Sequence record: KP869112
Origin: Escherichia coli O157 typing phage 14
Length of the DNA stretch: 64,000 nucleotides
Reading direction: 5' to 3' (one strand)
Part shown: positions 44-17,418 of the stretch, piece by piece
How positions within the stretch are numbered: the first letter of the stretch is position 1
Layout of the letters: each line of letters opens with the position of its first letter
Program-made: the position numbers and the translations under genes
The notes under the pieces: generated by a model
What the model was told of the DNA's origin: nothing
The model's input: only the letters and a program-made list of their open reading frames with translations
Database searches by the model: none

Positions 44-664
44 TTAAAAACTGCGTTTGCGTCTTGGGTGGCGAGGAGGTTGGTTATTTAGACCACTGAT
101 AGGTGTAATCCCCTGGACATCGAACGGTCCGTTGCTGTTTTCATTAAATTTAACCCGAATTCCTTCATCTACACGAACACCACCAATGATAATCATTCTG
201 CTGTAAGCATCTAGCTCAGAATCTACATAGTCTGGGTGTGCCAGCAGCCAATCAAGGAAATCTTTCCATTGGGCGTAGGAAGATCCACCACGAATCTCTA
301 TGGTCTCATCACCTATTTTTTCCAGACGGGAAGTTATACTTGCATTACCGCTGGACACTTCCTGCATCATTAGCCACCGCACAAGCTGCACAAGCACATT
401 GTACTTAAGCAGAGGTAGCTTATCAGGGTCTGCCGGATAATTTAGTTTCAACTTCTCCATGTCAAGGAATGTTTTAATTACCTCATCAGGGAGAGTTTCC
501 TCATCAACATTGCCGAGCAACAACCTCATAATATTAATAAGAGGTTGGTCTGGATCAGGTTCCGGAAGTACAGGATCTTCTTTTGGTGGTTCTTCTGGGG
601 TATCGACTACACCATCATGGTTAGGCGGTGACGGGATAATCTCTTCATCTTCATACCATGCCAT
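44..664 (-). CDS. hypothetical virion/morphogenesis protein
   Basis: Minus-strand ORF at the distal end of the head gene block; start moved to internal ATG at 664 (GAGGT 8 nt upstream). No recognisable motif. Confidence 0.4.
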   Translation of the reverse strand: MAWYEDEEIIPSPPNHDGVVDTPEEPPKEDPVLPEPDPDQPLINIMRLLLGNVDEETLPDEVIKTFLDMEKLKLNYPADPDKLPLLKYNVLVQLVRWLMMQEVSSGNASITSRLEKIGDETIEIRGGSSYAQWKDFLDWLLAHPDYVDSELDAYSRMIIIGGVRVDEGIRVKFNENSNGPFDVQGITPISGLNNQPPRHPRRKRSF

Positions 665-723
665 TTGAAAATACCTCGTAAAAATAAAGCCCCATTCCTG
701 ATTTGGAAGGGGCCTTAACAAAA

Positions 724-1572
724 TTATGCCAGTGCAGCCTCAAAATCTTTCATCATATTTTGGAAAGTTTTTGCCTTACTTAAGGTAACACCGTACTCTT
801 TAGCGAAGGTTTGGAGTGCATCTTTTGAACCACTTTTGTCATCTTCGTTGTTAAGAGCTGCGGCCTGTTTAAGGATTTCATCCTTATTCTCAATGGCTAC
901 AAATGAGGAAGAGGATACAGTCACATCTTGCGGATCTGCTACAGTAACTTCACCGTCACCACCAGGTTCAGTAGGACCTACAGGCGGCTCCGGCTCTGGT
1001 TCAGGCGGCTCCGGCTCTGGTTCAGGCGGTGGAGCTATCGTAGAGACCAGTCCAAGATTTACAACCTGAGAACGTTTCTTAGGCCACTCAATGGTGAAAG
1101 TTTGGGTATCTTCTTCATAAACAATGTTGCATTGCTCATCGTTTATGGTCACTTTTTTAGGCATCCCTACAGGATCCCACAGATGACCTTCTGCCACGGA
1201 AACCTTGAAAGCAGCATCTACCTCTTTAAACACTGACGGAGTGAGTGTGATATTGACATCCCCGCTTTGCAGTGTTAAAGTGCTTTCATCAAGGTTCTCT
1301 GTGAAGAACAGAAGAATAACACCCATACGGATAGTTGAAATACCAGTATCAATTGGCAGGCCTGTATGTTTTGCAATCTTCTCGAAGAAGTCTACAATCG
1401 TTCTGCACGGATAGTGAACACTGCCAATAACGAATTCTGTTGGTGGCAGCAGGGCTGATAAACCAACATTGATTTCTGGGTTATATTGTGCTAAAAATTG
1501 ATAAAAACTTAACTGATTGTTGAAAACTCTTAATAGAGGATCATACTCGACTGGGTAGACGGTTCGCTTCAC
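724..1572 (-). CDS. hypothetical structural protein with Pro-Glu repeat linker
   Basis: 282-aa ORF immediately downstream of the capsid gene; contains PEPEPEPPEPEPEPP encoded by a tandem DNA repeat near 976-1030. Confidence 0.5.
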   Translation of the reverse strand: MKRTVYPVEYDPLLRVFNNQLSFYQFLAQYNPEINVGLSALLPPTEFVIGSVHYPCRTIVDFFEKIAKHTGLPIDTGISTIRMGVILLFFTENLDESTLTLQSGDVNITLTPSVFKEVDAAFKVSVAEGHLWDPVGMPKKVTINDEQCNIVYEEDTQTFTIEWPKKRSQVVNLGLVSTIAPPPEPEPEPPEPEPEPPVGPTEPGGDGEVTVADPQDVTVSSSSFVAIENKDEILKQAAALNNEDDKSGSKDALQTFAKEYGVTLSKAKTFQNMMKDFEAALA

Positions 1573-1646
1573 GGGACACTCCTGTTAAACCCTAATAAAT
1601 AAAAAGGGGAGGGGGAGAACCCCCTCCCCATATGGGATGAATCACC

Positions 1647-2660
1647 TCAGTGATTACCACCTTTCAGAGTTGCTTTAACAACCAGCTCTGGACGGGTGTT
1701 AACTGCCAGCATGGAAGTTTCAGATTCAATCTTCTCTTCACGCAGGTATGCAGAGTGTTTATACCACATATACAGTTCCTGTGCTGGAGTGTTTGCTTCG
1801 TTAACATCGTCTGCCGGAGCAAAGTGCAGCTGGAACATCTGATCAATACCCATCGGCAGGATGCGAGCCTCTTTCTTAGGAATATTGCCAGAGATATCTT
1901 CGATAAAGGTGATACCTTTATGCTCAAACACACGGTATACGCTGTCTTGACCACCCGCACCCAGACGGCGACGCAGAGGTTCCTGAGCAGAGCCGTAATA
2001 GGTGTATGCCAGTTCTACCAGCGGGTGATGGGTAACAGCACTGAAGAACTCCGGTGAGCACAGGGCTACGATGCGATAGCCAGCTGCGTTATCACCAGCT
2101 TGCAGTGCGATGTGCAGACGAGCTTCTTCCAGAACCTCCATAGGATCCTGATCTGCTTTTGCAGGGTCAATCTCAACAGACTTCTGATCCACACCCCACA
2201 GAGTGTAGTAGTTATACTGGCAGGTAGCGTCACCAGGTGCATAGGATTTACCCAGAATAGCCTGGAACAGCGCTTTCTCACGCAGTGCTTCATGGGAAAC
2301 ACGGATACGGCGAACAACGCGGGTTACTACGTCCTGAACAGTTTTCGGAGCATCAGGAGTGAAGTAACGACGGAAGTTCTGAACATCTGCAGCAGTGATG
2401 CCTTTATCCAGAGGGAAGAACGGGATGTTCAGGTTTTTAACCTGAGCACGTTCATTACCAACGTAGTTACGCTCACCACCACGACGGCGTGCCGGAATGT
2501 CTGTTACAACTTCATCAACACGCTCGATCTGAGCAATTGTTGAGGTGCCGAGACGAGTTTCGAACAGATCCATACCAGTAATCAGGCGGAATTGACGCGG
2601 AACAAGGTCCAGAGTAGCACCTAAATCAACAATGCCAAATTCATCTTTACGAGTAATCAT
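1647..2660 (-). CDS. putative major capsid protein
   Basis: 337-aa ORF at the end of the order terminase-portal-scaffold-like-small head protein; size and position fit an HK97-fold coat protein. Assigned by synteny, not by motif. Confidence 0.55.
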   Translation of the reverse strand: MITRKDEFGIVDLGATLDLVPRQFRLITGMDLFETRLGTSTIAQIERVDEVVTDIPARRRGGERNYVGNERAQVKNLNIPFFPLDKGITAADVQNFRRYFTPDAPKTVQDVVTRVVRRIRVSHEALREKALFQAILGKSYAPGDATCQYNYYTLWGVDQKSVEIDPAKADQDPMEVLEEARLHIALQAGDNAAGYRIVALCSPEFFSAVTHHPLVELAYTYYGSAQEPLRRRLGAGGQDSVYRVFEHKGITFIEDISGNIPKKEARILPMGIDQMFQLHFAPADDVNEANTPAQELYMWYKHSAYLREEKIESETSMLAVNTRPELVVKATLKGGNH

Positions 2661-2708
2661 TTATTTCTCCAAAGTAAAACTTAAATATTTTCCCGAACAA
2701 TTTAGGAC

Positions 2709-3098
2709 TTACTCTTCCCCAAGAGTCTGGACGTGAACTTTGTTACCCAGAGCTTCCAGCTTTTCAAGAACAGCCTGCTTAGCTGCTTCACCGTCAGACC
2801 CCAGCAGCTTATCTTTTGCAAAGGTAACACCATGAACTGCAACAACCAGTTTATATTTCTGACCTGTTTTCAGAGGCTCAGCAAGATGAACTTTTCCTGC
2901 ATCTTTTACCAAAGCTCGGTCTACAAGAACACCATAAACGTCTGAGTCATCATCGTTAGCGATAGTGCCAGTTTTTGTTACAACAGTACCAGCATGATGG
3001 TGCTCTGTCAGTATAATTTCCATCTCTTTAAAATTGTAGCCAGCATCGCTAGAATCAACTTTGCCGAGCACGATATCAGAATATTGAGCGGTAATCAT
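2709..3098 (-). CDS. putative head decoration/accessory protein
   Basis: 129-aa ORF directly upstream of the capsid gene; positional inference only. Confidence 0.35.
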   Translation of the reverse strand: MITAQYSDIVLGKVDSSDAGYNFKEMEIILTEHHHAGTVVTKTGTIANDDDSDVYGVLVDRALVKDAGKVHLAEPLKTGQKYKLVVAVHGVTFAKDKLLGSDGEAAKQAVLEKLEALGNKVHVQTLGEE

Positions 3099-3118
3099 TT
3101 ATTTCCCCCGTTAATGTC

Positions 3119-4096
3119 TTATTTGGTAGATTCTGCACGTGCACGAGCAAGTGCTTTTGCAACGTTTTCAGCAAGAATTTCTTCTGCGGATTTTGCAATA
3201 TCATCCACAACAGGTTCGCCATCATTACCATGTTCAGTGGTGGCAAACTCTTCTTTGGTTTTATGCACCTCTGCTTCCAGCTCTTCAATTTTGGCCTGAG
3301 CTTTCTCCAGCATAGCTACGATAGGTTCGTTAGCTTTTTCCAGCATGAAGTCAACCAGGGTTGCATGATCTTCTTCACCAACAAAGCTTAAAGCTTGAGC
3401 CTTAGTCAGCATTTTAGCTTTTTCAACTTCAATCTGGGCTTTGATGATTTCTTCAGCTTTACTCTGGGTTGCTTTCAGCTCTTCTACTTGCTTCAGCAGA
3501 TCCAGATACTCTTTAGTTTTGGTTACGTCCACCGGATTCTCCTCGGTATTTGCGGATTTTGCAACATCATCCACCTCGGTAGTTTTATCCACCTCAGCAG
3601 GTTCCTGTACCGCCTTGATCAGGTTCCCTTCTTTATCGAAGAGATCAGCGGTTACTTGTTCAAAAATCTGTTGTGTTTTTAACAGGCTGTACTGATCTAC
3701 CACACTAAGCTGCTTGCCTTCTTTTGCAGCCTTATGAATGGTCACGTTATCACAACGCTCTTCCAGCCATGCAATACAAGACTCTGCGTCAGCTTGCGCC
3801 CATTCCCAATCAGGATGCTCTTTAGCCCAAGCCTCCTCTTCAATCTCAAAACCAAGCATGTGTGCAAGTGCTTTAGCATCATCATACCACATACCGAAGA
3901 AACGACGCAGGTATTCTTCAAAACTAAGCTCCACAGTAACTTGGCGAAGTGCCTTAACAATATCGTCTGTTAACTGCTCAGGCTTAAGATCACTCTTCAT
4001 CAAAAGAGATACAGGTCTGTTGTTAGCGCTATAGCCTTGCGCCTTATGGCACAGGGCAATCCCCTTCTCTTTAATAGTAATCGTTTTTTCAGACAT
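3119..4096 (-). CDS. putative scaffolding protein
   Basis: 325 aa, acidic, long Ala/Glu/Lys-rich predicted coiled-coil C-terminal half; lies between portal and capsid genes. Confidence 0.45.
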   Translation of the reverse strand: MSEKTITIKEKGIALCHKAQGYSANNRPVSLLMKSDLKPEQLTDDIVKALRQVTVELSFEEYLRRFFGMWYDDAKALAHMLGFEIEEEAWAKEHPDWEWAQADAESCIAWLEERCDNVTIHKAAKEGKQLSVVDQYSLLKTQQIFEQVTADLFDKEGNLIKAVQEPAEVDKTTEVDDVAKSANTEENPVDVTKTKEYLDLLKQVEELKATQSKAEEIIKAQIEVEKAKMLTKAQALSFVGEEDHATLVDFMLEKANEPIVAMLEKAQAKIEELEAEVHKTKEEFATTEHGNDGEPVVDDIAKSAEEILAENVAKALARARAESTK

Positions 4097-4500
4097 TATT
4101 CATTGCCCTCTTCTACAACACTGATCCCGAAGTTTACGTTGGTAATTTCACCAGTTTCTTCATCAACATTACCTGTTGCCTGAATGCTTAGGCCACCAAC
4201 AATGCCAGCCTTCTTAGCTTCCCATAATTCAGGATTATTGTATTTAACTTTAGCAACCCAAGAGCCAGCCTTGATGACCTGCTCAGTGCCAATTACTACA
4301 ACATCAAACTCTTCTTGAATCCACGTCTTTTCAATAGTGAAAGCATCTGTAGAGGTCAAGTGAAAAAGGTTTTCAGAAACTAGTCCTGCGGCGTAGGCTG
4401 CGTCCCAGTTATCTTTAGCCTTTTTGATGGTGTCTTTACTCATCCACTCACCGTGAGCATCTTTAGTGTCAGGTTCGTAGATGATTTCGTAGGAAATCAT
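4096..4500 (-). CDS. hypothetical head-module protein
   Basis: Between portal and scaffold-like gene. Start trimmed to ATG at 4500 (AGGAAG SD); the longer 4671 start would overlap the portal gene by about 90 nt. Confidence 0.35.
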   Translation of the reverse strand: MISYEIIYEPDTKDAHGEWMSKDTIKKAKDNWDAAYAAGLVSENLFHLTSTDAFTIEKTWIQEEFDVVVIGTEQVIKAGSWVAKVKYNNPELWEAKKAGIVGGLSIQATGNVDEETGEITNVNFGISVVEEGNE

Positions 4501-4582
4501 TTCTTCCTGTGGCATCTTATTCCCCATGTGGATTATTTTATCACGCCAAAGGAGGTTTTGCAACCCCCTGTGTTGATAATTT

Positions 4583-6139
4583 TTAATTTTCCATGTTGGA
4601 TATGGAATTATCTCTGGTTGATGATATCTTAGAAGTACCGTTGCCAGTGGATCCTGCAGCCATTCCATCACCAGCTCTACTGATGTCCTGGCCCAAGAGC
4701 TTCATCAGCTCTTCCTGATCCATATCCTCGTCAAATCTTTCATCAAACCCGCCTACTTCAAGAATCTTATTAATTACTGCAGGAGTTTTTGGCAAGTAAC
4801 CTACAGCACCGATCCTCTGAACAAACTTGGAGAAGCTCTCCATGTCCACTTCTTCAATCAGACCAGGTTTCAGTTTAGGCATATCATCATCTTCAAGGAT
4901 GATACCATTCAATGCCAGAAGCTGTGGTATAAGATCTTTATTGAAGGCCTCAGTGATAATATCTATATCACGCTGAACAAAATGACCATGGATAGACTGT
5001 TTTGACTCAGACAGAGAGAAAGATCCGACGTTATCGTTACCGAGGTTAATAAAGCCAGCACCGAAACGGTCAAGAATCGCCTTCTTACGGGCATCAATCA
5101 AATCTTTAGTGGAATACTGCTTACCCATACCGTCAACCCCCTTCAGGGTCATGGAGTAAAGCTCTTTACCAGACTTATCTCTATCAGACGGAAGTATAAA
5201 GAAACTTTGCTCACCACTATGGGCGTTTGCTGCGTCAAGCATAAGGTCTGCAACCATTCTCCCTTCCATTGAATTCGGGTCAATGCTTGCCTTGTTCAAA
5301 ATATTGGAAGGAATTTTCAGCTCAAGCACACCACCAAGGTCTTTGGAACAGCCAACAACCTCAAGGTTTTCAATCAGAACTTTCTCACGGAAAGATCTGT
5401 AGCAACCTATCATCGGTGATACACCTGCAGGGTTAGATTCTGTTCCTGACAGGGTCATGAGCATAAGCTTTTTAGCAGGGATGAAAATTTCAGGCTCATT
5501 AAAGCCTTTTGAAGGCATTGCAGCAAGAGGTCCAGCCCAGCGTGCATTCTGAGTGTTTAGAAATGCATTAGGTGACTGATAAATACCTGTCAGTGTTCTG
5601 CTATTCTTATCAAAAACAAACGGCTCTGATCTGGACAGGCTGGCCTGAGGTCGGAATGCAATTTTATCGATAAGGAGCATCCCGGCATATTTACCTTCTT
5701 TTTCTCTGCGGTATACTTTCTCAAACAGTGAAAAACCATACTCGTTAAAGGTAGCTGCGCTTCTTGCAATATCTCGAAGAGTTTGTTGGTTTGCCAAATT
5801 ACGCAAAGAATACTCTATAAGCTCGGCAGCTTTCTTAGAGTCTTCACTTTTAACATTATAAAGGATCTTAAAATCATTGAATGCTTTCGTGATGAAAACA
5901 TATTTTGTATCTAAGGCAGTAGCAACTGTGGAATCACATTTCATAGTCTCCACTGTGGCAATCAGCTGAGGCCAACGCAATTCCTCAACCATCATAGATT
6001 GCGATTCTGCCATAATTTGGGAAAGTGCGCCAGAACCGATCTCACTCATACGAACATTATGAGTTGGTGCGCCTGCGTTCCCAGATTTATTCACAGTTTT
6101 GGCTGTGGCGTTGTGTTTCCTGCGGTTCTTTTTGGACAC
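4583..6139 (-). CDS. putative portal protein
   Basis: 518-aa ORF immediately downstream of the large terminase gene; size and position typical of portal proteins. Confidence 0.55.
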   Translation of the reverse strand: MSKKNRRKHNATAKTVNKSGNAGAPTHNVRMSEIGSGALSQIMAESQSMMVEELRWPQLIATVETMKCDSTVATALDTKYVFITKAFNDFKILYNVKSEDSKKAAELIEYSLRNLANQQTLRDIARSAATFNEYGFSLFEKVYRREKEGKYAGMLLIDKIAFRPQASLSRSEPFVFDKNSRTLTGIYQSPNAFLNTQNARWAGPLAAMPSKGFNEPEIFIPAKKLMLMTLSGTESNPAGVSPMIGCYRSFREKVLIENLEVVGCSKDLGGVLELKIPSNILNKASIDPNSMEGRMVADLMLDAANAHSGEQSFFILPSDRDKSGKELYSMTLKGVDGMGKQYSTKDLIDARKKAILDRFGAGFINLGNDNVGSFSLSESKQSIHGHFVQRDIDIITEAFNKDLIPQLLALNGIILEDDDMPKLKPGLIEEVDMESFSKFVQRIGAVGYLPKTPAVINKILEVGGFDERFDEDMDQEELMKLLGQDISRAGDGMAAGSTGNGTSKISSTRDNSISNMEN

Positions 6140-6241
6140 AAGCTTTACCCCTCAAAACAGTATAACAAAATAGCCCTCTAACACGAGGGCTAGTATCTCC
6201 GATTACTCTATTCTACCACATCTAATTAAGATTGGCAACAC

Positions 6242-7363
6242 TTAGATAAAACGCTTGAACATAGAAGGTGATGAGATTGATGGAATCACACAAGGGAGTG
6301 CTACCTCCTCTTTCTCCAGGAAATTAATCGCAGAAGCTACACAGTCGGCCCAGTCGTCTTTTCTGTTAAATGTTGATCTTTCCCCGTTGAATTTTTCAAG
6401 TTCAGTCAGAAATGCTTCCAGAGTATCAGGATGGAAACTGGATTTTACAATCCTCACCATTCCTTGTTGTGCAAGATTGGCAAAAGGTGAGAACCTTGTC
6501 AGTTTAGATTTGTTGGAAGGCATTGGGTCTTCTTCAACCCTGAACCCTTCGGCGAGCAAGGATCTGGATGAGGTTAAGAACTCACTCTTACCTGCCTGAC
6601 CAGGGTCCACAGAGAATACGATTATGCAATCATCACCATCAAACTGCGCCTGTTTCCTGATGATCACATCTCGTTCACCAGCCTTTTTACAGAACTTGCC
6701 TTCCAGACCTGTGGAATACCTCCCGTCATCCACGTTCTCAGGACAATAATCACCGGACAGGTAATAAAAGCCGTCGCTATCTTTACTTACCTTAATACTG
6801 GCGGTAAAGTCAGGAAATTTATTACCGGAAGTTCTCTCGGTTCCTGCCTTATCCCATGCCCTGCAAGATACTGATCCAAGGGGTACTCTATCGGCATCAC
6901 GAAGGAAAGATCTTTGAAAATAGTTTGCACCCTCAGGCTTTGCAAACCAGTTGCCATGAAGAAGCTGGGCTTTTTCAAGCTCGGGCAGACCTTCAAGAAA
7001 AGCAAGGTATTCTGGGTTGTCTCTTAAGCAGACAGGATTATCGAATATTGTTGCTCCTATAAACGAGAATGACAACGGTCTTGGCTTGATCTCCACACCC
7101 AGCCCGTTAACCGTGGTGTATTTCTCTATCAACTCTTCTTTGGAGTCTCCCCATATAAATTCACCGTCGCGTCGGATAAAATATCTTTTCTTACCGCATT
7201 TCTCCGGATCTGGATACCCTTCATCGTCCAACCACCATCTAACCAGTTTGGCAAGCATGTGTTCTGAATCGGGGTTACAGCTGATAACCATTCTTGATGG
7301 ATACTTTGACTGAGATCGCAGACGAGACATCAGATAGTCTATCTGCTCCCATTCGAACTGTGT
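6242..7363 (-). CDS. terL: terminase large subunit, exon 2 (nuclease domain)
   Basis: Reading frame is open upstream of the annotated ATG back to 7363 (TQFEWEQIDYLMSRLRS...MVISCNPD); joins in frame to exon 1 after removal of intron 7364-8246. Confidence 0.75.
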   Translation of the reverse strand, partial: TQFEWEQIDYLMSRLRSQSKYPSRMVISCNPDSEHMLAKLVRWWLDDEGYPDPEKCGKKRYFIRRDGEFIWGDSKEELIEKYTTVNGLGVEIKPRPLSFSFIGATIFDNPVCLRDNPEYLAFLEGLPELEKAQLLHGNWFAKPEGANYFQRSFLRDADRVPLGSVSCRAWDKAGTERTSGNKFPDFTASIKVSKDSDGFYYLSGDYCPENVDDGRYSTGLEGKFCKKAGERDVIIRKQAQFDGDDCIIVFSVDPGQAGKSEFLTSSRSLLAEGFRVEEDPMPSNKSKLTRFSPFANLAQQGMVRIVKSSFHPDTLEAFLTELEKFNGERSTFNRKDDWADCVASAINFLEKEEVALPCVIPSISSPSMFKRFI

Positions 7364-8246
7364 CGTTTATGTTCGGGCAAGGTCGCTAGTCTTGCCCCGC
7401 CATTTTCAGGCAGCTGCATGTCTCCATGCAGACCAGACTATATCTTATGAATGTGTAAATACTCTGCCGCTCTAAGAATAGTTTCCTCATCTTCTTGGAA
7501 GAAACCTAAAGCTCTGTTGCATTTATCACAAAGCAACCCTCTTACAGCACCAGTTTTATGGTCATGATCAACACAAAAGAAATCTCTGTACCCTTGCGTC
7601 CTATACTCATTAAGAGATATTCTACAAATGGCACACTTATGATCTTGATCTGAGAGTAGACGATAGTATTCATCTTTTGTTATGTGAAATTTCTTCTCAA
7701 TCTGATAAAACTTTTCACACATCTTACACCTGTTCGTAACCAGATATACTTTACCATAGTCACGTTTTGTGTAAAAACTATCAGCGAGCATACTTTCATG
7801 ACAAGATTTGCATTCAAAAAGTTCACCTTTCTTCAGCAAGTCTTGAATAAACAATGCTGCGTCATCTCTCTTAACCATATTTTTGTTTTTACGAGATCCA
7901 CCCTTCCTGTAGTACATATAGCATTCCTTGCATGTGCCTGAGTATCCATCCTTGCTCTCAGATGATAAAAAGAAATCATCAATAGGCAGAACTCTTTGGC
8001 AATCCATACATTTTTTAGTATTACACATTCACCCTCCCGTTTCGAATCGCTTGATTCTACGTCTTTCGACTAGTCGTTGAACGTTCATCCTCTCGGATGC
8101 TTCGCTGCGGATTATCTAAATTAACACACTGTTACCATACCTTCGATCTCTCTTCGAAGCCTCTATTATGTTACCATAACAGGTTGGTGGTGTCAATAAT
8201 AAAGATTTCCCCGCAATTAGGGAGGTTTTACGAGAGCTACAAATTA
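7364..8246 (-). mobile_element. group I self-splicing intron interrupting terL
   Basis: On the minus-strand RNA all four conserved group I elements are present: P AAUUGCGGGGAAA (plus 8206-8218), Q AAUCCGCAGC (8104-8113), R GUUCAACGACUA (8071-8082), S AAGAUAUAGUCU (7435-7446). Exon 1 ends GAGGGU and pairs with intron GCUCUC as a P1 helix with U.G at the splice site; intron ends in G. Confidence 0.8.
7438..8028 (-). CDS. intron-encoded endonuclease VII-family (HNH-type) homing endonuclease
   Basis: 196 aa with CVDHDHKTGAVRGLLCDKCNRALG (the DHDH...RGLLC..CN signature of T4 endonuclease VII-like nucleases) and Cys-rich N-terminus; ORF lies between intron elements R and S and its last codons overlap S. 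Confidence 0.75.
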   Translation of the reverse strand: MCNTKKCMDCQRVLPIDDFFLSSESKDGYSGTCKECYMYYRKGGSRKNKNMVKRDDAALFIQDLLKKGELFECKSCHESMLADSFYTKRDYGKVYLVTNRCKMCEKFYQIEKKFHITKDEYYRLLSDQDHKCAICRISLNEYRTQGYRDFFCVDHDHKTGAVRGLLCDKCNRALGFFQEDEETILRAAEYLHIHKI

Positions 8247-8672
8247 ACCCTCATCGAAGCAAACCATGGTGTACTCAAGCCCCTGATGGTTAAGCTTATC
8301 TTGTACATACTCCATGTGGCAGTATTTTACAACAGCTCCCTTTTTGCTTCTATCCCACTTACCAGTGTTCGGATCAAACCGTGGAAAAATGAACTTATGA
8401 TCCTTCTCTCTGAACTTTGGCTTAATGTTTTCAGGCAGATCACTATAAATAGCTACTGCTTTAGGCCATAGTCCACCCTCACCTTCCAACTGTGGTGTTG
8501 TTCTTCGGAACATAACCACAGAGCTGTGGGGGTCATCAATAATTTTAAGTGGCATCAACTGCAAGAGGAACGACTTGCCAGACCCTGCGGCACCGCCGAT
8601 TACCAAAATATCTGCATCGTTTTCTAGGATCATCTTCTGCTTTTCAGAACACGGTCCGTAAATCTTAGACAT
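8247..8672 (-). CDS. terL: terminase large subunit, exon 1 (ATPase N-terminus)
   Basis: Walker A GGAAGSGKS and Walker B MVCFDEG; the stop codon right after FDEG lies inside the intron. Confidence 0.75.
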
Positions 8673-8959
8673 TAACCTCTCTCCTTTGGAAACAGTGTTC
8701 TAATATAGTCTTGCAAAATGATCAATTTAGCTCTATCATTGCTACAAGACAGATTATTATCCCTCATAATGCCAGAATTCACTGCATCTGGCGCACCTTT
8801 CTTCAAAGGCATAGCTTTAGCAGGTGGTTTCATGGCACCTTCTGGGGGTTTAACAATCAACCTTCCTACATCCGGAGGGTCAATCTTGTATTCTCTCTCA
8901 ACGCTGGTTACACACCCACATAATAACAAGCACACAATAAACAGTGTAGCAACTCTCAT
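8672..8959 (-). CDS. putative o-spanin (Rz1-like outer-membrane lipoprotein)
   Basis: 95 aa; N-terminal signal peptide with LLLCGC lipobox-like motif, then Pro-rich region (KPPEGAMKPPAKAMP); directly follows the i-spanin-like gene. Confidence 0.55.
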   Translation of the reverse strand: MRVATLFIVCLLLCGCVTSVEREYKIDPPDVGRLIVKPPEGAMKPPAKAMPLKKGAPDAVNSGIMRDNNLSCSNDRAKLIILQDYIRTLFPKERG

Positions 8960-9354
8960 CTACCCTCCTGATTAATACTCTCATTATAAATATCTATAAG
9001 CTGATCAGGGAGTGTTGACTTCTTACCTTCAGGGGATTGGAGGTAGATAATCTGCTTTTCTCTACCTGCCCTCTCAGCTATATTTAATTTATCCTGCAGA
9101 TCAGAAAGAGATTTTTCAAGGTTTTTAACCTCCTCTGCGTGGCCCATTTTAATCTTGTCGGCCTGCTTTTGTTGCTGATCAAGGATCCGTTCCCACTTTA
9201 ACTCTGTTACTGACACACCCTCCTGGTAGGCATCATTAAGCTTGGAGTTAAACCAATACACGGCCCCAAGATAAGCTGTACCTATCGCAGCTGCAAAAAC
9301 TAAACCTTTTATGATCCCTTTATACCTACTCAGCCATGTTAAAACTGAAATCAT
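8956..9354 (-). CDS. putative i-spanin (Rz-like)
   Basis: 132 aa; one N-terminal transmembrane helix (GLVFAAAIGTAYLGAVYWF) followed by a charged coiled-coil-like domain. Confidence 0.55.
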   Translation of the reverse strand: MISVLTWLSRYKGIIKGLVFAAAIGTAYLGAVYWFNSKLNDAYQEGVSVTELKWERILDQQQKQADKIKMGHAEEVKNLEKSLSDLQDKLNIAERAGREKQIIYLQSPEGKKSTLPDQLIDIYNESINQEGR

Positions 9355-9459: not shown

Positions 9460-9729
9460 TTATCGAGGCACTCGGTGGATGATTCTAACAGTAACTGCAT
9501 TTTCATTCATCAAGTATGCATCTACATCTCTGTAAATATAAAACTTCTGCTCACTATCAACAACACAAGCTACCGCCCCTTCAGAGTTGTCTTCAAAAAA
9601 GACCACCACTGCATCGCAGCTGAGTTCATGATATGACTCTCGAAGATTTACAGCCAGAGGATTGAAATCGTCACGAAAATCTAAGGTATGGGTTGGATTT
9701 ACACGCTCTACAATTTTAAGTGTATACAT
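9460..9729 (-). CDS. hypothetical protein
   Basis: Start trimmed to ATG at 9729 (AAGGAA SD) because the longer ORF overlaps tRNA-Pro. Confidence 0.4.
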   Translation of the reverse strand: MYTLKIVERVNPTHTLDFRDDFNPLAVNLRESYHELSCDAVVVFFEDNSEGAVACVVDSEQKFYIYRDVDAYLMNENAVTVRIIHRVPR

Positions 9730-9775
9730 TTTAAAGGTTCCTTTTGTTTGTATATGTTTAAAGTATAACTGAAAG

Positions 9776-9852
9776 TGGTCTCCACGGAGTGATTCGAACA
9801 CTCGACCTCCTGATCCCAAATCAGGCGCTCTACCAAGCTGAGCTACGCGGAG
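9776..9852 (-). tRNA. tRNA-Pro (anticodon UGG)
   Basis: Hand-folded cloverleaf: 7-bp acceptor stem, T-loop TTCGAAT, anticodon loop UUUGGGA, encoded CCA. Confidence 0.75.
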
Positions 9853-9863
9853 TATTTATTATT

Positions 9864-9938
9864 TGGTGGCCCTGGGTGGAATTGAACCACCGTCTGGCGA
9901 TTATGAGTCGCTTGCTTGAACCTTCCAGCTACAGGGCC
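9864..9938 (-). tRNA. tRNA with CAU anticodon (Met or Ile2)
   Basis: Acceptor GGCCCTG/CAGGGCC, T-arm GGTGG-TTCAATT-CCACC, anticodon arm GCGACUCAUAAUCGC, encoded CCA. The anticodon arm resembles the E. coli ileX type as I recall it, so Ile2 is possible. Confidence 0.7.
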
Positions 9939-9939
9939 A

Positions 9940-10015
9940 TGGTGCTGATGGCAGGACTTGAACCTGCAACCTATTGATTACAAATCAATTGCACTACCAA
10001 TTGTGCTACATCAGC
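9940..10015 (-). tRNA. tRNA-Thr (anticodon UGU)
   Basis: Acceptor GCTGATG/CATCAGC, D-stem GCAC/GTGC, anticodon stem ATTGA/TCAAT with loop UUUGUAA, T-loop TTCAAGT, CCA. Confidence 0.75.
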
Positions 10016-10022
10016 AAAAAGG

Positions 10023-10119
10023 TGCTAGGTGATGGAATCGAACCACCTATGTATTCAACGACTACCTCGTCTATTTTCAGGATTAAAAATCCTCGCCCTT
10101 GCCAAAGGGCTTACCTAGC
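10023..10119 (-). tRNA. atypical tRNA-like gene (Lys-like UUU anticodon loop, 29-nt variable region)
   Basis: Perfect 7-bp acceptor GCTAGGT/ACCTAGC, D-arm GCCC-TTTGGCAA-GGGC, T-arm GGTGG-TTCGATT-CCATC; anticodon arm GAGGA-UUUUUAA-UCCUG (G-G mismatch at 27-43). About 29 nt sit between anticodon and T stems, including an ACGA/TCGT hairpin. No complete encoded CCA. Confidence 0.5.
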
Positions 10120-10216
10120 TCAGTATGTTGACCATGTTGCTAGTCGGCGATGACGACTGTAACATTTGATAATCCGGTTCTGCTTCCGGCTTTCGCTTAA
10201 TTACAAGGTCAACAAT

Positions 10217-10308
10217 ATGGCCGAGGGTAATGGAATCGAACCATCATCAAGTCATCCTCAACGGGACGGTTTTCAAGACCGCTTGAGCACCATTGCTCCC
10301 TACCCTCA
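10217..10308 (-). tRNA. tRNA-Ser (anticodon UGA)
   Basis: Class II tRNA, 92 nt: acceptor TGAGGGT/ACCCTCG, anticodon stem GCGGT/ACCGT with loop CUUGAAA, long variable arm, T-loop TTCGATT, CCA. Confidence 0.7.
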
Positions 10309-10422
10309 TTTATAAACAATACTGATAATGACACTGATTTTCGAGCAGTTAGTGACTAGTATAAACGACGATAAATATCAATGCCATTATCTGTATGATT
10401 TATGCATTTAAAACTATAAATT

Positions 10423-10509
10423 TGGTGGGGAGTGGTGGAGTCGAACCACCCGAGTCGCAATGACAATAGATTTACAGTCTACACCGCTACCTCTACGGGA
10501 TAACTCCCC
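10423..10509 (-). tRNA. tRNA-Tyr (anticodon GUA)
   Basis: Acceptor GGGGAGT/ACTCCCC, anticodon stem GTAGA/TCTAT with loop CUGUAAA, long variable arm (class II, bacterial Tyr type), T-arm GGTGG-TTCGACT-CCACC, CCA. Confidence 0.7.
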
Positions 10510-10513
10510 AATT

Positions 10514-10588
10514 TGGCACCCCGTACTGGACTCGAACCAGTGTCAACGGCTTAGAAGGCCGCTGCTTTATCCACTAAGCTAACAGGGC
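10514..10588 (-). tRNA. tRNA-Arg (anticodon UCU)
   Basis: Acceptor GCCCTGT/ACGGGGT (two G.U pairs), D-stem GCTT/AAGC, anticodon stem GCGGC/GCCGT with loop CUUCUAA, T-arm ACTGG-TTCGAGT-CCAGT, CCA. Confidence 0.7.
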
Positions 10589-10684
10589 ACTGGGTGGCTT
10601 TCTTTTACACCTTAGCCGCCAGAAAAGGTGGGAGACCATGTTTACAATATTACACTGTTAAGCAAAGTTTGTCAAGAAAATATT

Positions 10685-11023
10685 TTAGCTATTGCTAACA
10701 GGTTGTATTTCTGTGGTAAATGGCATAAAAGGTGCTGGTTTTTCAGCCTCTTCTACTACCACCTCTTCCTCTTCACCAAACATCTCATCATATTCTTCCT
10801 GCATTCGGTCTGCCTTATCAAGAACATACTCTGCAATGCTTTGACGAATATTTTGTTTGGTTTTCGGGTCCAACATCAGCTCTCTTAAAACTTTGTGAGC
10901 TTCTGGAACCATCGCTATAAAAGATTCCTTCATATCAAGGATGTTCTTCTCTAGCTGAATGGCGTTGGACTCCTCTTTCAGAGGTCTGCCTCTACGGCGA
11001 CGCTTTTTAGTTGTATCCGCCAT
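10685..11023 (-). CDS. hypothetical basic protein (possible DNA-binding)
   Basis: Start at internal ATG 11023 (GGAGG SD). N-terminus KKRRRRGRP, acidic C-terminus. Confidence 0.45.
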   Translation of the reverse strand: MADTTKKRRRRGRPLKEESNAIQLEKNILDMKESFIAMVPEAHKVLRELMLDPKTKQNIRQSIAEYVLDKADRMQEEYDEMFGEEEEVVVEEAEKPAPFMPFTTEIQPVSNS

Positions 11024-13565: not shown

Positions 13566-14120
13566 TTACTCCCCGCTGTCAATAGCAAAACTCATTGCAA
13601 TACGGTATGCCTCTTCTAATGGTAAGAGTCTCCCCCACACATCCCAACCGACATCAAGCTGCCTGCCAAACAACTGTTGTGTGGTTCCGTGAGCATGACC
13701 GAACAGTTGGACTGATCCGTGAGGCTTTCTGTTCCACTTTGCAAATTGGTAATGGCTCATACAGATCAAATTCTTGTTGTGGCGAAGCTCGTAATAATCT
13801 ACAACCTCGTGATAGAACTCTTTCATAATTCTGACAGTCGTCCTTGTGTCATGGTTGCCACGAACAAGAATAATATGTCCGTTCAACATATTTAGAATAT
13901 CTGGAAGTAATTTGTTGATATTCTTATCATTAGTGCACGCAATATCTCCCAAGTGGAACACAGTGTCTGCAGGTGACACAACAGAGTTCCACTCGGCGAT
14001 GATTCCCGCATTCATACTGTCAAGATTGTGATCATACTGAGATCTGTGTTTTTGACATGAATCAAACTCCATGACCCGCTGGTGGAGAAAGTGTGTGTCG
14101 CTTGTTACAAAGTATTTCAT
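13566..14120 (-). CDS. calcineurin-like metallophosphoesterase (candidate RNA-end healing phosphatase)
   Basis: Motifs SDTHF, HLGDIA, GNHD and FGHAHG in the order typical of binuclear metallophosphoesterases; start at ATG 14120, just after the kinase stop. Confidence 0.65.
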   Translation of the reverse strand: MKYFVTSDTHFLHQRVMEFDSCQKHRSQYDHNLDSMNAGIIAEWNSVVSPADTVFHLGDIACTNDKNINKLLPDILNMLNGHIILVRGNHDTRTTVRIMKEFYHEVVDYYELRHNKNLICMSHYQFAKWNRKPHGSVQLFGHAHGTTQQLFGRQLDVGWDVWGRLLPLEEAYRIAMSFAIDSGE

Positions 14121-14127
14121 ACATTCC

Positions 14128-14538
14128 TCATTTAAGTTTAATGCAGTTTTTAAGCTGGCGTTCCATACGATCCACAACCTTGTCTGGAACATCATGAATG
14201 CTTTTATTACCGTGGCGGTTTTCAACCACGATCACGGTATAACTATACCCATGACTGATTGCCATGTCAACATATTCCTGCACATGTTTTTCTTTTGTAA
14301 ACGTATTACTTACCACGATACGGTCGTATCCCATACGCATCATATCTTCTACGTTATCTTTGCACCATTTTGCTGCGAGTGTTACTTTACTTGCATCCCA
14401 GTTGTAATTGCCGTCATCGTCATACCAGAACATGTCGTTCTCAAAATGTGGATACAGACCTTCTAAAGATAGCGCATTTGCCAGTGTTGATTTGCCAGAC
14501 CCTGGCAGACCACGCACGATATATAGCATTTTAGACAT
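14128..14538 (-). CDS. pnk: polynucleotide 5'-kinase (T4 Pnk kinase-domain-like)
   Basis: P-loop GLPGSGKST, then acidic NDMFWYDDDG, IVVSNTF and IHDVPDKVVDRM, matching the layout of the T4 polynucleotide kinase domain as I recall it. Confidence 0.65.
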   Translation of the reverse strand: MSKMLYIVRGLPGSGKSTLANALSLEGLYPHFENDMFWYDDDGNYNWDASKVTLAAKWCKDNVEDMMRMGYDRIVVSNTFTKEKHVQEYVDMAISHGYSYTVIVVENRHGNKSIHDVPDKVVDRMERQLKNCIKLK

Positions 14539-14638: not shown

Positions 14639-15574
14639 ATGACAAATGAGGAACGTATGATGAAGTATTTTAATGCAGATGACCTAGTAGACAAAGGTCT
14701 TGTAACCAGTCGGTATTATCCAGATCTTGGATTAAAGATCTATAAATATGCCAGAAAAGTATTCTACAACAATCTGTGGCATTTGTCTCCGCGTTTACTG
14801 GAGTGCCGAGGTATTGTTGTTGGCAATGAGGGGAATGTTGTGGCATGGCCTTTCACAAAAGTATTCAACTTAGGAGAAAACTCCACCAACCTACCGGACA
14901 GTAAACTTGTTACTGCGGTAGAGAAAAAGAACGGATTCCTCGGTGTGGTATCATCTCATAAAGGTGAACTATTGTTCTCAACAACCGGGTCTCTTGATTC
15001 TCCATATTGTAACCTTGCAAAGGAAACCATCCAAGAGCAATGTGGTAATTTAGATCTTATCAAGAAGGTTATGGGCAATGAAAACATGACATTCATGTTT
15101 GAAATTTGTCACCCTTCAGATCCGCATATTGTTCAAGAAGACCATGGCGCATATTTGATAGGTTGCAGATATAATGATTCTGGAATAATGCTACCAGAAG
15201 CAGCTTTAGATGGGATTGCCAAATACCTTGGTGCAAAACGTCCTCACACTGTGCGTGAAATCCCGTTCAGCTATGCAAAAGAATTAGCTGCAGAAACAAG
15301 GGGCGAAGGGTATATGATCCGTAAGCCTTACTACCCTTATGACCTGCAGCTGAAGATCAAGTCTCCATACTATTTGGCACGGAAGGCCGTAATGAGAGGT
15401 AAAGCATGGAAGATTTGGGATGACGATATTTTTAAACGTGTTGACGAGGAGTTTTACGGTATGGTAAAATTTATTCGTAGCAACTATACAGAAGATGTGT
15501 GGAATTGCTTATTAGAGCAGGAGCGTCGCGAGATACTGGACTGCTATTTCCACAACGAGGACTATATGCAATGA
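14639..15574 (+). CDS. rnlA: RNA ligase, T4 Rnl1 family
   Basis: LLECRGIVV, KVFNLGEN and the motif I lysine in VEKKNGFLGVV (KxNG) match the T4 RNA ligase 1 N-terminal region as recalled (ALECRGIMF, KFFNLNEN, TKEDGSL); also EGYMIR and KIKSP motifs. Confidence 0.8.
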   Translation: MTNEERMMKYFNADDLVDKGLVTSRYYPDLGLKIYKYARKVFYNNLWHLSPRLLECRGIVVGNEGNVVAWPFTKVFNLGENSTNLPDSKLVTAVEKKNGFLGVVSSHKGELLFSTTGSLDSPYCNLAKETIQEQCGNLDLIKKVMGNENMTFMFEICHPSDPHIVQEDHGAYLIGCRYNDSGIMLPEAALDGIAKYLGAKRPHTVREIPFSYAKELAAETRGEGYMIRKPYYPYDLQLKIKSPYYLARKAVMRGKAWKIWDDDIFKRVDEEFYGMVKFIRSNYTEDVWNCLLEQERREILDCYFHNEDYMQ

Positions 15575-15921
15575 AGAAGTGGATTGTGTGGCTTGATGAT
15601 TTTAGAGATCCGTCAGATTATGGACTCCCAGACGCTCTGTGGCTAAAGAATTCTTCTGAATTTATGGATTTTCTTAATGATAAGAGAAAGCTCTACAGAC
15701 GCGTATCTGAATGGTATTTTGACAATGATCTAGGTGAAGTTCTTGAAGGGTACGACTGCTTCTCTGCGCTAGAGGAGAAACTTGTATTCGGAAAGCCACC
15801 ACTTATTGACAACGTGATTATTTTCGTGCATACTTCTAATCCATCGGCAGCTCGTAAATTTATGCTTGCTGCTGACTCATTCAAGAAGTTTGGAATAGAG
15901 ATCAAACAAAACATCTACTAA
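15571..15921 (+). CDS. hypothetical protein
   Basis: Start at ATG 15571 overlapping the ligase stop (ATGA); no motif recognised. Confidence 0.4.
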   Translation: MKKWIVWLDDFRDPSDYGLPDALWLKNSSEFMDFLNDKRKLYRRVSEWYFDNDLGEVLEGYDCFSALEEKLVFGKPPLIDNVIIFVHTSNPSAARKFMLAADSFKKFGIEIKQNIY

Positions 15922-15929
15922 GGACATTT

Positions 15930-16691
15930 ATGCGACGACTTATTGTTATTTCTGGTGCTGGTTTGAGCGCAGAATCTGGTATTCCCACCTTCCGATCTGG
16001 TAGCACTGCAATGTGGGAGAATTTCAGCATCGATGAGGTGTGCAACATCCACACCTTTGCCAAGAACTACTATAAGGTGCATGACTTTTACAATGCACGT
16101 CGTGTAGCGCTGGGCAGTGTTGATCCTAACCTTGCACATCTTCGGATCGCTGAGTGGTATTCCCGCTGGTCTGGTCGTGTGATCAACCTTACCACCAATG
16201 TAGATGATTTGCTGGAGCGTGCTGGTGTAAAACATGAAGATATTTTACATGTCCACGGGTATTTGCCTGAAATCACCTACGAAGATGCTGAAGGTAATGA
16301 TGTAATTAAAAATATCGGATACACGGAGGTAGATACAGGCAAGTATACCTGGGTTAAGCCCAATGTAGTGTTCTTCGGCGAGGTTGCTCCTAAGTATACA
16401 GACATGTATGACCTGTTGACATCTCTCACCAGCAATGATATGGTGATCCTAGTGGGTTGTTCTAACACAGTTATTAATTTTAACTGGGAATTGTTTCCTG
16501 CTACTTGTAAAGGAACAAAACTGCTGATTGTAAACAAGTATGATTCGCAGAGTGCAGATGGAAGTGGCATTTCACGTAGCGACCTTTATCAATATGAGGA
16601 TCGCGGGATCCCTGTATGGTTTAACGGTGCTGTTGACGCTTTCTCTGATAAAGCATTTATTGAAACTGTAGAAAACTTTATGGAACTTTAA
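15930..16691 (+). CDS. Sir2-family (sirtuin-like) NAD-dependent protein
   Basis: Canonical sirtuin motifs GAGLSAESGIPTFR, TTNVDDL, HVHG and VVFFGE, but no Cys4 zinc ribbon between the HG and FGE motifs. Confidence 0.75.
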   Translation: MRRLIVISGAGLSAESGIPTFRSGSTAMWENFSIDEVCNIHTFAKNYYKVHDFYNARRVALGSVDPNLAHLRIAEWYSRWSGRVINLTTNVDDLLERAGVKHEDILHVHGYLPEITYEDAEGNDVIKNIGYTEVDTGKYTWVKPNVVFFGEVAPKYTDMYDLLTSLTSNDMVILVGCSNTVINFNWELFPATCKGTKLLIVNKYDSQSADGSGISRSDLYQYEDRGIPVWFNGAVDAFSDKAFIETVENFMEL

Positions 16692-16704: not shown

Positions 16705-17418
16705 ATGCTGAATACTAAACTGATCGACAACCTGGAAAAACTGTCTCAGCCTGAAAACTACCTTTGGTCTGCCAATTGGGTGGAAAACTGGAACCGTGTG
16801 GCAGCTAAAGTGAAAAAATCATACACACCATTCGAATTACAGCTTAGCTTCATTGAGGAAGAGTTCAATGAGGTTTTGGAAGAGCTGGAGAAAGGTGATG
16901 GTGGAGATCACCTGCTAAAAGAGGCCTGCGATCTTCACGTTGTCACAAGTTATGCCGCTTATCTTGTTAATGATAATCACGAAAAGTGGTCAAACCTGTT
17001 TGATAATCCGCGAGGTCTTAAGTTCAAGATCGGCGAGTTCTATGATACACTGATCGCTGCGAAAAACACCTCTAAGCAAAGAGCGTCTGCTTACCGCTTA
17101 GCAGAGTTGTCAACAGCTTTGCTGTTCCAGCTTCGCGGCGATGTGTGCGGGATGATGCGTAAGGTTCTCAAATCGAATGACAGCAAGTTTGCACGGGTCA
17201 ACCATCTACGGTATTCACACGGTGCCAGTGCAGATATGCCTGCTGAACAACTAATCGAGTTGGAGATTAAAGATCTTGAACGACGCTTTGATGGTCGATA
17301 TGAAGGTTTTGTTGCCAAGGAAGAATTCTACAACGGTAATAAAGTTATCATATTCCTTGACAGTAAAGGTAAGATCATGAAGCCTTCGAGCTTCAAGGAT
17401 GTAACAGAGTATATTTAA
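16705..17418 (+). CDS. MazG-like nucleotide pyrophosphohydrolase
   Basis: EExxE...ExxD pattern (FIEEEFNEVLEEL...KEACDLHVV) typical of all-alpha NTP pyrophosphatases. Confidence 0.5.
   Translation: MLNTKLIDNLEKLSQPENYLWSANWVENWNRVAAKVKKSYTPFELQLSFIEEEFNEVLEELEKGDGGDHLLKEACDLHVVTSYAAYLVNDNHEKWSNLFDNPRGLKFKIGEFYDTLIAAKNTSKQRASAYRLAELSTALLFQLRGDVCGMMRKVLKSNDSKFARVNHLRYSHGASADMPAEQLIELEIKDLERRFDGRYEGFVAKEEFYNGNKVIIFLDSKGKIMKPSSFKDVTEYI

Follow-up and report, generated by a model that had tools for sequence, protein, structure and literature searches.

A phage tRNA operon that probably serves both rare-codon supply and replacement of nuclease-cut tRNAs

We analyzed 64,000 nucleotides of DNA from Escherichia coli O157 typing phage 14 (sequence record KP869112; this whole stretch is called the window), which carries a cluster of seven tRNA and tRNA-like genes at positions 9776-10588 on the minus strand. 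The cluster is probably a mixed-function operon that combines supply of tRNAs for rare codons with replacement of tRNAs cut by nucleases, in the style of T-even phages. Its most unusual items are a tRNA-like RNA of odd structure and a structured spacer RNA also found in phage lambda. What we observe are the identities of the genes, their homologies, the statistics of codon use and changes in motifs, from which we infer expression, aminoacylation and any protection.

ARAGORN, run on the window, placed all seven genes at exactly the coordinates given in an earlier note on this DNA. The gathering score of the Rfam tRNA model was reached by six of the seven, the exception being the Ser gene; both class II genes (Ser and Tyr) also gave matches below threshold to the Rfam tRNA-Sec model. 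Canonical elongator tRNAs were recognized by a cloverleaf, a 7-nucleotide (nt) anticodon loop with U33 and a purine at position 37, a canonical T-loop, and a CCA end that is encoded or can be added. Six genes conform to this description: each is called by ARAGORN and encodes CCA, and five reach the Rfam gathering score, Ser being class-II-like. The seventh gene, called Lys-like in the earlier note, does not conform, as its anticodon loop is not conserved among its orthologues and its variable region is non-standard. The six ordinary tRNAs are:

10514..10588, minus strand: tRNA-Arg(UCU), decodes AGA/AGG (ARAGORN; Rfam 67.8 bits)
10423..10509, minus strand: tRNA-Tyr(GUA), class II (ARAGORN)
10218..10308, minus strand: tRNA-Ser(UGA), class II, with an unusual D-arm (ARAGORN; best Rfam score 37.9 bits to the tRNA-Sec model, sub-gathering)
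9940..10015, minus strand: tRNA-Thr(UGU), decodes ACA (ARAGORN; Rfam 79.5 bits)
9864..9938, minus strand: tRNA with anticodon CAU, judged to be of Ile2 type and to decode AUA (ARAGORN; ileX-type anticodon arm)
9776..9852, minus strand: tRNA-Pro(UGG) (ARAGORN; Rfam 66.4 bits)

The anticodon loops of Arg, Tyr, Ser, Pro and Ile2, five of the seven genes, are the same as in the host, the Arg loop being that of E. coli argU and the Ser loop that of serT; in Thr and the odd RNA, position 32 is U instead of the C of the host. tRNA-Pro shares 82% identity with the T-even tRNA-Pro and 78% with proM, and tRNA-Ser 87% with the tRNA-Ser of an E. coli phage-plasmid. For the CAU gene the earlier note had allowed either Met or Ile2. 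By its sequence features this tRNA is Ile2-type and AUA-reading, because its anticodon arm (GCGACTCATAATCGC) is the same as that of E. coli ileX, its acceptor stem (GGCCCUG/CAGGGCC) contains C4-G69 and C5-G68, initiator features are absent (G-C at pair 1-72, and no three consecutive G-C pairs in the anticodon stem), and its identity to metT/metZ is low (61-66%, versus 76% to ileX). The two acceptor pairs are determinants for TilS, and the tRNA is presumably modified with lysidine. It is also 99% identical (74/75) to a T-even CAU tRNA, which there comes directly after Thr. An assignment to Met or fMet was ruled out by the same identity values and stem features. The Met link to tRNA-cleaving toxins, which involves VapC acting on initiator tRNA, is therefore not applicable to this gene.

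The codon-supply test compared 14,242 phage codons, from 101 non-overlapping open reading frames (ORFs) called in the window, with 3,518 host codons from eight E. coli K-12 genes, whose values agree with published ones. Phage-to-host per-mil ratios were 20.6 for AGA, 4.7 for ACA, 2.2 for AUA, 1.6 for UCA, 1.4 for AAA, 1.1 for UAC and 1.05 for CCA, corresponding to enrichment ranks of 1, 2, 5, 16, 22, 32 and 34, respectively, among 59 codons. Mean log2 enrichment of these seven Watson-Crick cognate codons was 1.24 (permutation p=0.002 versus random sets of seven). In the late-gene block at 44-9354 (portal, terminase; 2732 codons), enrichment of AGA and UCA was still greater. Values in the rV5 genome paper point the same way (AGA 5.1% versus 26%, ACA 14.6% versus 35%). 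A codon that is both host-rare and phage-enriched, as codon compensation demands, was found for Arg (AGA), Thr (ACA) and Ile2 (AUA), and marginally for Ser (UCA). It was not found for Pro, Tyr and the Lys-like gene, since none of CCA, UAC and AAA is host-rare in the eight-gene K-12 sample. The outcome that the earlier note had named as refuting its idea, in favour of codon compensation, was thus obtained for Arg, Thr and Ile2, weakly for Ser, and not for Pro, Tyr and the Lys-like gene. For the latter three genes, supply is consistent only with amino-acid demand or with U-ending codons: the phage over-uses no amino acid as much as Lys (1.78-fold) and Tyr (1.42-fold), and CCU (2.05) and UCU, both readable by tRNAs with cmo5U34, are ~2-fold enriched.

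Evidence for replacement comes from the Tyr and Thr genes. The PtuAB nucleases of Septu EcB88 and retron-Eco7 cut tRNA-Tyr in the variable arm. Deletion of the T6 tRNA-Tyr renders the phage sensitive to Septu EcB88, and overexpression or amplification of the gene rescues it in a dosage-dependent manner; rescue from retron-Eco7 has been shown for the tRNA-Tyr of T5, SP15 and HS106. The tRNA-Tyr of the window is 97% identical (84/87) to that of T6 and 98% identical (85/87) to another T-even tRNA-Tyr, and its variable arm, the region of cleavage, is that of T6. Identity is 93% to the phage-plasmid copy, 76-80% to the N4-like HS106 and T5-like tRNAs, which have the same anticodon and rescue from the PtuAB of retron-Eco7, and 68% to E. 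coli tyrU. In contrast to T6, the window gene is not accompanied by a SegB-driven amplification module, and the distinct variable loop behind the resistance of the T5 tRNA is not present in it.

The nuclease P2-OLD kills mainly via cleavage of E. coli thrU and requires a paired CNG motif at positions 28-30/40-42 together with A37. Phage Thr(UGU) tRNAs that rescue from it have an altered CNG motif. The anticodon stem of the window tRNA-Thr differs from that of thrU in one compensatory pair, C28-G42 to U28-A42, and CNG, the motif that P2-OLD needs, is therefore gone from both strands. The window gene is alike in this to the Thr(UGU) rescuers of P2-OLD and PARIS (T5, phage 21 and library tRNAs), in which the paired CNG pseudo-palindrome is destroyed. 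The phage tRNA-Tyr has also lost CNG, by the same change relative to tyrU. CNG is retained in the phage Ser and Pro tRNAs and has been gained in Arg (host argU is without it), and determinant substitutions of relevance are absent from Arg, Ser, Pro and Ile2.

Thr(UGU) did not appear on the target list of the earlier note, yet it is the prime target of P2-OLD, a prime target of PARIS AriB and a top target of DARNA, a promiscuous nuclease that cleaves most tRNAs and acts most strongly on trpT, thrU and tyrT/V. The anticodons shared with defence targets are thus Thr UGU (P2-OLD, PARIS, DARNA) and Tyr GUA (PtuAB, DARNA), and the UUU loop of the odd RNA matches the anticodon targeted by PrrC and PARIS. 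The general idea that phage tRNAs evade tRNA-cutting defences, or rescue from them, is already published (Burman 2024; Belukhina 2025; P2-OLD study 2025; Azam 2024).

The earlier note had listed the seven isoacceptors, pointed to Lys, Tyr, Arg and Met as targets of anticodon nucleases or colicins, and suggested defence evasion beyond codon compensation. Its six anticodons for the ordinary tRNAs are borne out; Met gives way to Ile2, and an assignment to Lys is insecure for a gene whose loop varies by lineage. Among the proposed targets, Tyr holds, given the near-identity to the anti-Septu tRNA of T6. Arg drops out, as its case rests on colicin D, a bacteriocin and not a phage defence. The suggestion is partly right. 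Evasion is supported for Tyr and Thr by homology and motif; for Arg and Ile2 the data point to supply, and the loops are mostly identical to those of the host.

In the mixed-function reading, host RNA polymerase probably transcribes the operon early, using a strong sigma-70-like promoter that belongs to the operon itself, a function suggested by the following site:

10647..10675, minus strand: sigma-70-like promoter, TTGACA-17 nt-TAATAT, immediately upstream of the operon's first tRNA (consensus scan, 10/12 matches)

The transcript would then be processed into seven RNAs. By supplying Arg(UCU), Thr(UGU) and Ile2(CAU), and to a lesser extent Ser(UGA) and Pro(UGG), the operon would increase decoding of A- and U-ending codons, which this phage of 43% GC uses far more than E. 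coli and for which the matching host tRNAs are minor. Tyr(GUA) and Thr(UGU) would in addition serve as spare copies once the host versions are destroyed by tRNA-cutting defences, namely PtuAB of Septu or retron-Eco7 for Tyr and P2-OLD for Thr; protection from PARIS is not predicted. Tyr would act by dosage and Thr additionally by its altered anticodon stem. On good grounds of homology and motif, we infer replacement under nuclease attack for these two tRNAs.

A second line of protection may be provided by an RNA-repair cassette at ~13.57-17.42 kb, 3-7 kb from the tRNA operon, which would reseal tRNAs nicked in the anticodon loop, as occurs with PrrC-type nucleases. Searches against Pfam and PHROGs agree with the earlier note in placing such a cassette near the tRNAs:

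13566..14120, minus strand: calcineurin-like phosphoesterase, candidate RNA end-healing phosphatase (PF00149/PF12850; phrog_547 E=2e-52; start adopted from the annotated relative 'ime')
14128..14538, minus strand: P-loop nucleotide/polynucleotide kinase (PF13671 AAA_33 E=1.7e-10; phrog_2071, phrog_505 'polynucleotide kinase')
14639..15574, plus strand: RNA (tRNA) ligase of the T4 Rnl1 family (PF09511 E=9e-15; phrog_562 E=9e-66)
15571..15921, plus strand: cREC (cyclic-phosphate processing receiver-like) protein, predicted role (PF20274 E=1.6e-13)
15930-16691, plus strand: sirtuin (PF02146 E=7e-28)
16705-17418, plus strand: MazG-like pyrophosphohydrolase (phrog_2162 and phrog_671, given jointly for sirtuin and MazG)

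An Rnl1-family ligase, a 5'-kinase and an enzyme predicted to remove 2',3'-phosphates are thus encoded together, as expected for a healing-and-sealing system of the T4 Pnkp/Rnl1 type. Like T4, which repairs PrrC-cleaved tRNA-Lys with Pnkp and Rnl1, the window combines an Rnl1-family ligase with a P-loop kinase and an end-healing phosphoesterase. In contrast to T4, the phosphatase is calcineurin-like (HAD-type in T4), kinase and phosphatase are separate genes, and genes for cREC, sirtuin and MazG are present in addition. The neighbourhood is the same as that of phage V5, for which a NAD-dependent RNA-repair system has been predicted (Iyer et al. 2022). Neither ligase nor kinase had a sequence match in the PDB at E<=0.01.

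Several points weigh against the mixed-function reading. The T6 tRNA-Tyr, which has the same variable arm, is itself cut by Septu at C48; any protection by the window tRNA-Tyr would therefore be by dosage only. Cleavage by PARIS AriB, which reads U16, takes place at U36AAUC|A41 in Lys(UUU) and Thr(UGU), and T5 escapes by substitutions at these positions. The window tRNA-Thr retains both determinants, which are mutated in the T5 tRNAs, and is therefore predicted to be sensitive to AriB. As five loops are identical to those of the host, the 'loop-mutation' signature of phage tRNAs (van den Berg 2023) is mostly absent. Of the main defence targets known in E. coli, four in number (Lys, Thr UGU, Asn and Tyr), the cluster covers three (hypergeometric p=0.013), or two without the odd gene (p=0.10); this test is post hoc and confounded, the list of known targets is growing, and we do not count it as evidence. 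The codon samples are small (eight genes and 3518 codons for the host, 2732 codons for the late genes), and because Lys and Tyr are the most over-used amino acids, plain demand could explain the Lys-like and Tyr genes too. Finally, no experiment on any rV5-like phage was found in the searchable literature, and tRNAs of rV5 or Vequintavirinae are unmentioned in the papers on PARIS, retron-Eco7, Septu, OLD and Schlafen.

A first alternative is the classical explanation for T4 and rV5, in which all genes match the tRNA pool to the codon and amino-acid usage of the phage and any protection from nucleases is incidental. The host-rare, phage-enriched codons AGA, ACA and AUA, the ~2-fold enrichment of CCU and UCU, the over-representation of Lys and Tyr and the mostly host-identical anticodon loops all agree with it. 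However, CCA, UAC and AAA are not host-rare, and a nearly identical tRNA-Tyr, that of T6, has a demonstrated anti-Septu effect. Moreover, the sole pair change in the anticodon stem of Thr is the one that removes the P2-OLD motif, and a single tRNA-Tyr family with 76-98% identity is common to unrelated phage families of differing composition. We regard supply as the only function as rather unlikely, though as the likeliest of the alternatives.

A second alternative, self-sufficiency during host shut-off, holds that the phage tRNAs replace host tRNAs lost to a general RNA decay caused by infection (Yang et al. 2021, as quoted by van den Berg). An early sigma-70-like promoter would be in keeping with this idea, but nothing in the window suggests phage-induced tRNA decay, and six ordinary tRNAs are too few to sustain translation alone, making it improbable. 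Least probable, by a small margin, is the proposal made for T5 and mycobacteriophages, here that the whole set was selected to replace host tRNAs with nuclease-resistant ones: the repair cassette lies nearby and Thr, Tyr and the UUU-loop RNA coincide with main defence targets, but nothing links Arg UCU, Ile2, Ser UGA and Pro UGG strongly to defence, their loops are those of the host and their codons are the most phage-enriched or host-rare, while the phage Arg has gained a CNG that argU lacks and the AriB site is kept in Thr.

The T-even tRNA clusters are among the closest known counterparts of the operon. Like the window, the T4/T6 cluster contains Pro UGG, Ser UGA, Thr UGU, an Ile-type CAU tRNA and Arg UCU, with Tyr GUA in T6-like members; Thr adjoins CAU, identity is 99% for CAU and 97-98% for Tyr, and extra structured non-tRNA RNAs lie inside the cluster. 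In T4 these are the species 1 and 2 RNAs. The window differs from the T-even phages in its gene order, in having neither Gln, Leu and Gly tRNAs nor the homing endonuclease SegB in the cluster, in Arg and Ser tRNAs that are not close relatives (66-69% identity), and in holding the odd tRNA-like RNA and the lambda-shared spacer RNA.

The same isoacceptors recur more widely. All six canonical ones co-occur in a Tequatrovirus cluster; T6 has four, namely the Arg, Tyr and Thr tRNAs and one with CAU; five of the six are present in a 97-kb E. coli phage-plasmid, and Pro, Tyr and Ser in an N4-like Klebsiella phage. The joint occurrence of Arg UCU, Ile2 CAU, Thr UGU, Ser UGA and Pro UGG in T-even phages, with most of the five found again in a phage-plasmid and Pro UGG and Ser UGA in an N4-like phage, speaks for supply. 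The Arg-Tyr segment was matched by 1,539 phage records. E. coli phage-plasmids of ~92-97 kb (plasmid NZ_CP021537, L003:549-3064) carry an Arg-Tyr-Thr...Ser...Ile2 cluster with 82% identity to that of the window, and this cluster adjoins a Tad2 anti-Thoeris gene, i.e. an anti-defence neighbourhood. Tequatrovirus ECO07P4 (L023:1506-1861) has consecutive Tyr-Asn-His tRNAs, three of the four queuosine tRNAs cut by colicin E5; Asn is a target of PARIS as well.

The seventh gene of the operon, the Lys-like one, encodes an RNA of unusual structure:

10021..10119, minus strand: odd 99-nt tRNA-like RNA (ARAGORN; Rfam tRNA 35.5 bits; RNAfold fold z -3.7)
Copies of the odd RNA: window 10021-10119 (minus strand); L011:1501-1599; L012:1997-2104; L015:1671-1776; L057:8695-8802; L058:1487-1595

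It has a 7-base-pair (bp) acceptor stem, a 6-bp D-stem with a 4-nt loop, a 4-bp anticodon stem and a canonical T-arm. RNAfold and covariation together give the loop UUUUUAA, which would make the anticodon UUU. The variable region contains a 29-nt insertion (29-38 nt across the family), which forms an extra hairpin between two invariant single-stranded linkers, GAAAAUAG and UGAAUACAU; this enclosed hairpin covaries. The 3' end has A73 followed by CC without an encoded CCA, and CCA is not consistently encoded in the family. With respect to AriB, position 41 is C instead of A, as in T5 Mut2, and the D-arm is completely different.

Orthologues were found in Vequintavirus, Avunavirus (Av-05), Seunavirus (KE22) and two to three uncultured lineages. 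Across the family cloverleaf, 99.4% of cells are paired and six pairs have changed on both sides; slid controls gave none. The elbow pair 19-56 also covaries, from G19-C56 to U19-A56 in two lineages, by a D-loop change of UGGC to UGUC that accompanies a T-loop change of UUCGAUU to UUAGAUU. The covarying stems together with this elbow pair support an L-shape. In contrast to these constant features, the anticodon loop is lineage-specific and often non-canonical: UUUUUAA in the window, UUUAUAA in Av-05, CAUCAAA (with A33 and no U33) in another lineage, and 6 or 8 nt long in Seunavirus-like phages (CCAUCCAG / CCAGCCAG). The discriminator is A73 only in the UUU lineage and U in the others. Note that Salmonella phage KE22, which has a copy of the odd RNA, carries 22 canonical tRNAs for 17 amino acids, with none for Lys, His or Trp.

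The conserved 19-mer of the odd RNA had no match in 185,579 bacterial and archaeal species genomes. A gapped pattern searched in IMG/VR and a 17-mer searched in metagenomes gave mostly chance matches, of which a covariance model retained 5-6 lineages. ARAGORN had proposed a four-base anticodon ('???/atcc') for this gene. We rejected this fold, as its A/U stem is unconserved in the orthologues whereas the AGGA/UCCU stem covaries. An identity as tRNA-Sec or allo-tRNA was likewise rejected: the architecture is 7/5, not 8/5 or 9/4 (8/4, 9/3), UCA occurs in one lineage only and together with A33, and the discriminator is A or U, not G73. The sole likeness to tRNA-Sec is the 6-bp D-stem with its 4-nt loop, and the best match is to the general Rfam tRNA model. 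Possibly, though this is less likely than not, the Lys-like gene is no ordinary lysine tRNA but a member of an undescribed family of tRNA-like RNAs confined to Vequintavirinae-type phages. Such an RNA could act as a mimic or decoy towards host factors that bind tRNA, anticodon nucleases for example. Where UUU and A73 occur together, as in the rV5 lineage, it could have been converted secondarily to a nuclease-proof decoder of Lys codons.

Two spacers of the operon are also structured:

10120..10217, minus strand: 98-nt spacer RNA between the Ser and odd genes, with a ~60-nt invariant core inside a covarying closing helix
Copies of the 98-nt spacer RNA: window 10120-10217 (minus strand); L013:793-882; L003:1345-1442
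10309..10422, minus strand: 114-nt Tyr-Ser spacer, one long predicted hairpin (RNAfold minimum free energy -26.4 kcal/mol, z -4.2)

The 98-nt spacer is 83-88% identical to sequences of lambda/HK630 and D6. Its core stands by itself in the late leader of lambda/HK630, between orf64 and the holin gene S, and is also found directly after tRNA-Ser in D6-like phage-plasmids. Of 5426 E. coli genomes, 426 contain the core, which is without annotation everywhere. The closing helix differs in sequence among four lineages, with pairing kept in all. Neither spacer corresponds to an Rfam family in a permissive search of 9700-10700, which gave chance-level matches only (e.g. YrlA at 25 bits versus a gathering score of 69).

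The cluster region is 99.8-99.9% identical to that of rV5-like coliphages (genus Vequintavirus), and most of the tRNA cluster is present in 112 records. This rV5-like region of E. coli phages is matched at 98.8-99.8% identity by some 19-21 GenBank records titled 'Campylobacter phage' (MG0656xx), for which mislabelling or contamination is the probable reason. Elsewhere in the window, an insertion that contains an HNH/endonuclease VII-like ORF (7438-8028) divides the gene for the large terminase subunit into two minus-strand ORFs (8244-8672 and 6242-7330). This insertion, which is not present in the close relative 'ime', is probably of the homing-endonuclease or intron type.

In conclusion, codon compensation and defence evasion are not mutually exclusive within one operon, and the tRNAs in greatest demand in AT-rich phages appear to be just those that defences target. 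Phages of the rV5 type belong to the therapeutic coliphages that are isolated most often. Should survival under Septu/retron-Eco7, P2-OLD or PARIS-type immunity depend on two or three genes of the operon, host range would become predictable from the operon, which would also offer an easy handle for engineering. The odd tRNA-like RNA and the lambda-shared spacer RNA provide cheap, well-defined targets in the search for new non-coding functions in phage tRNA clusters.

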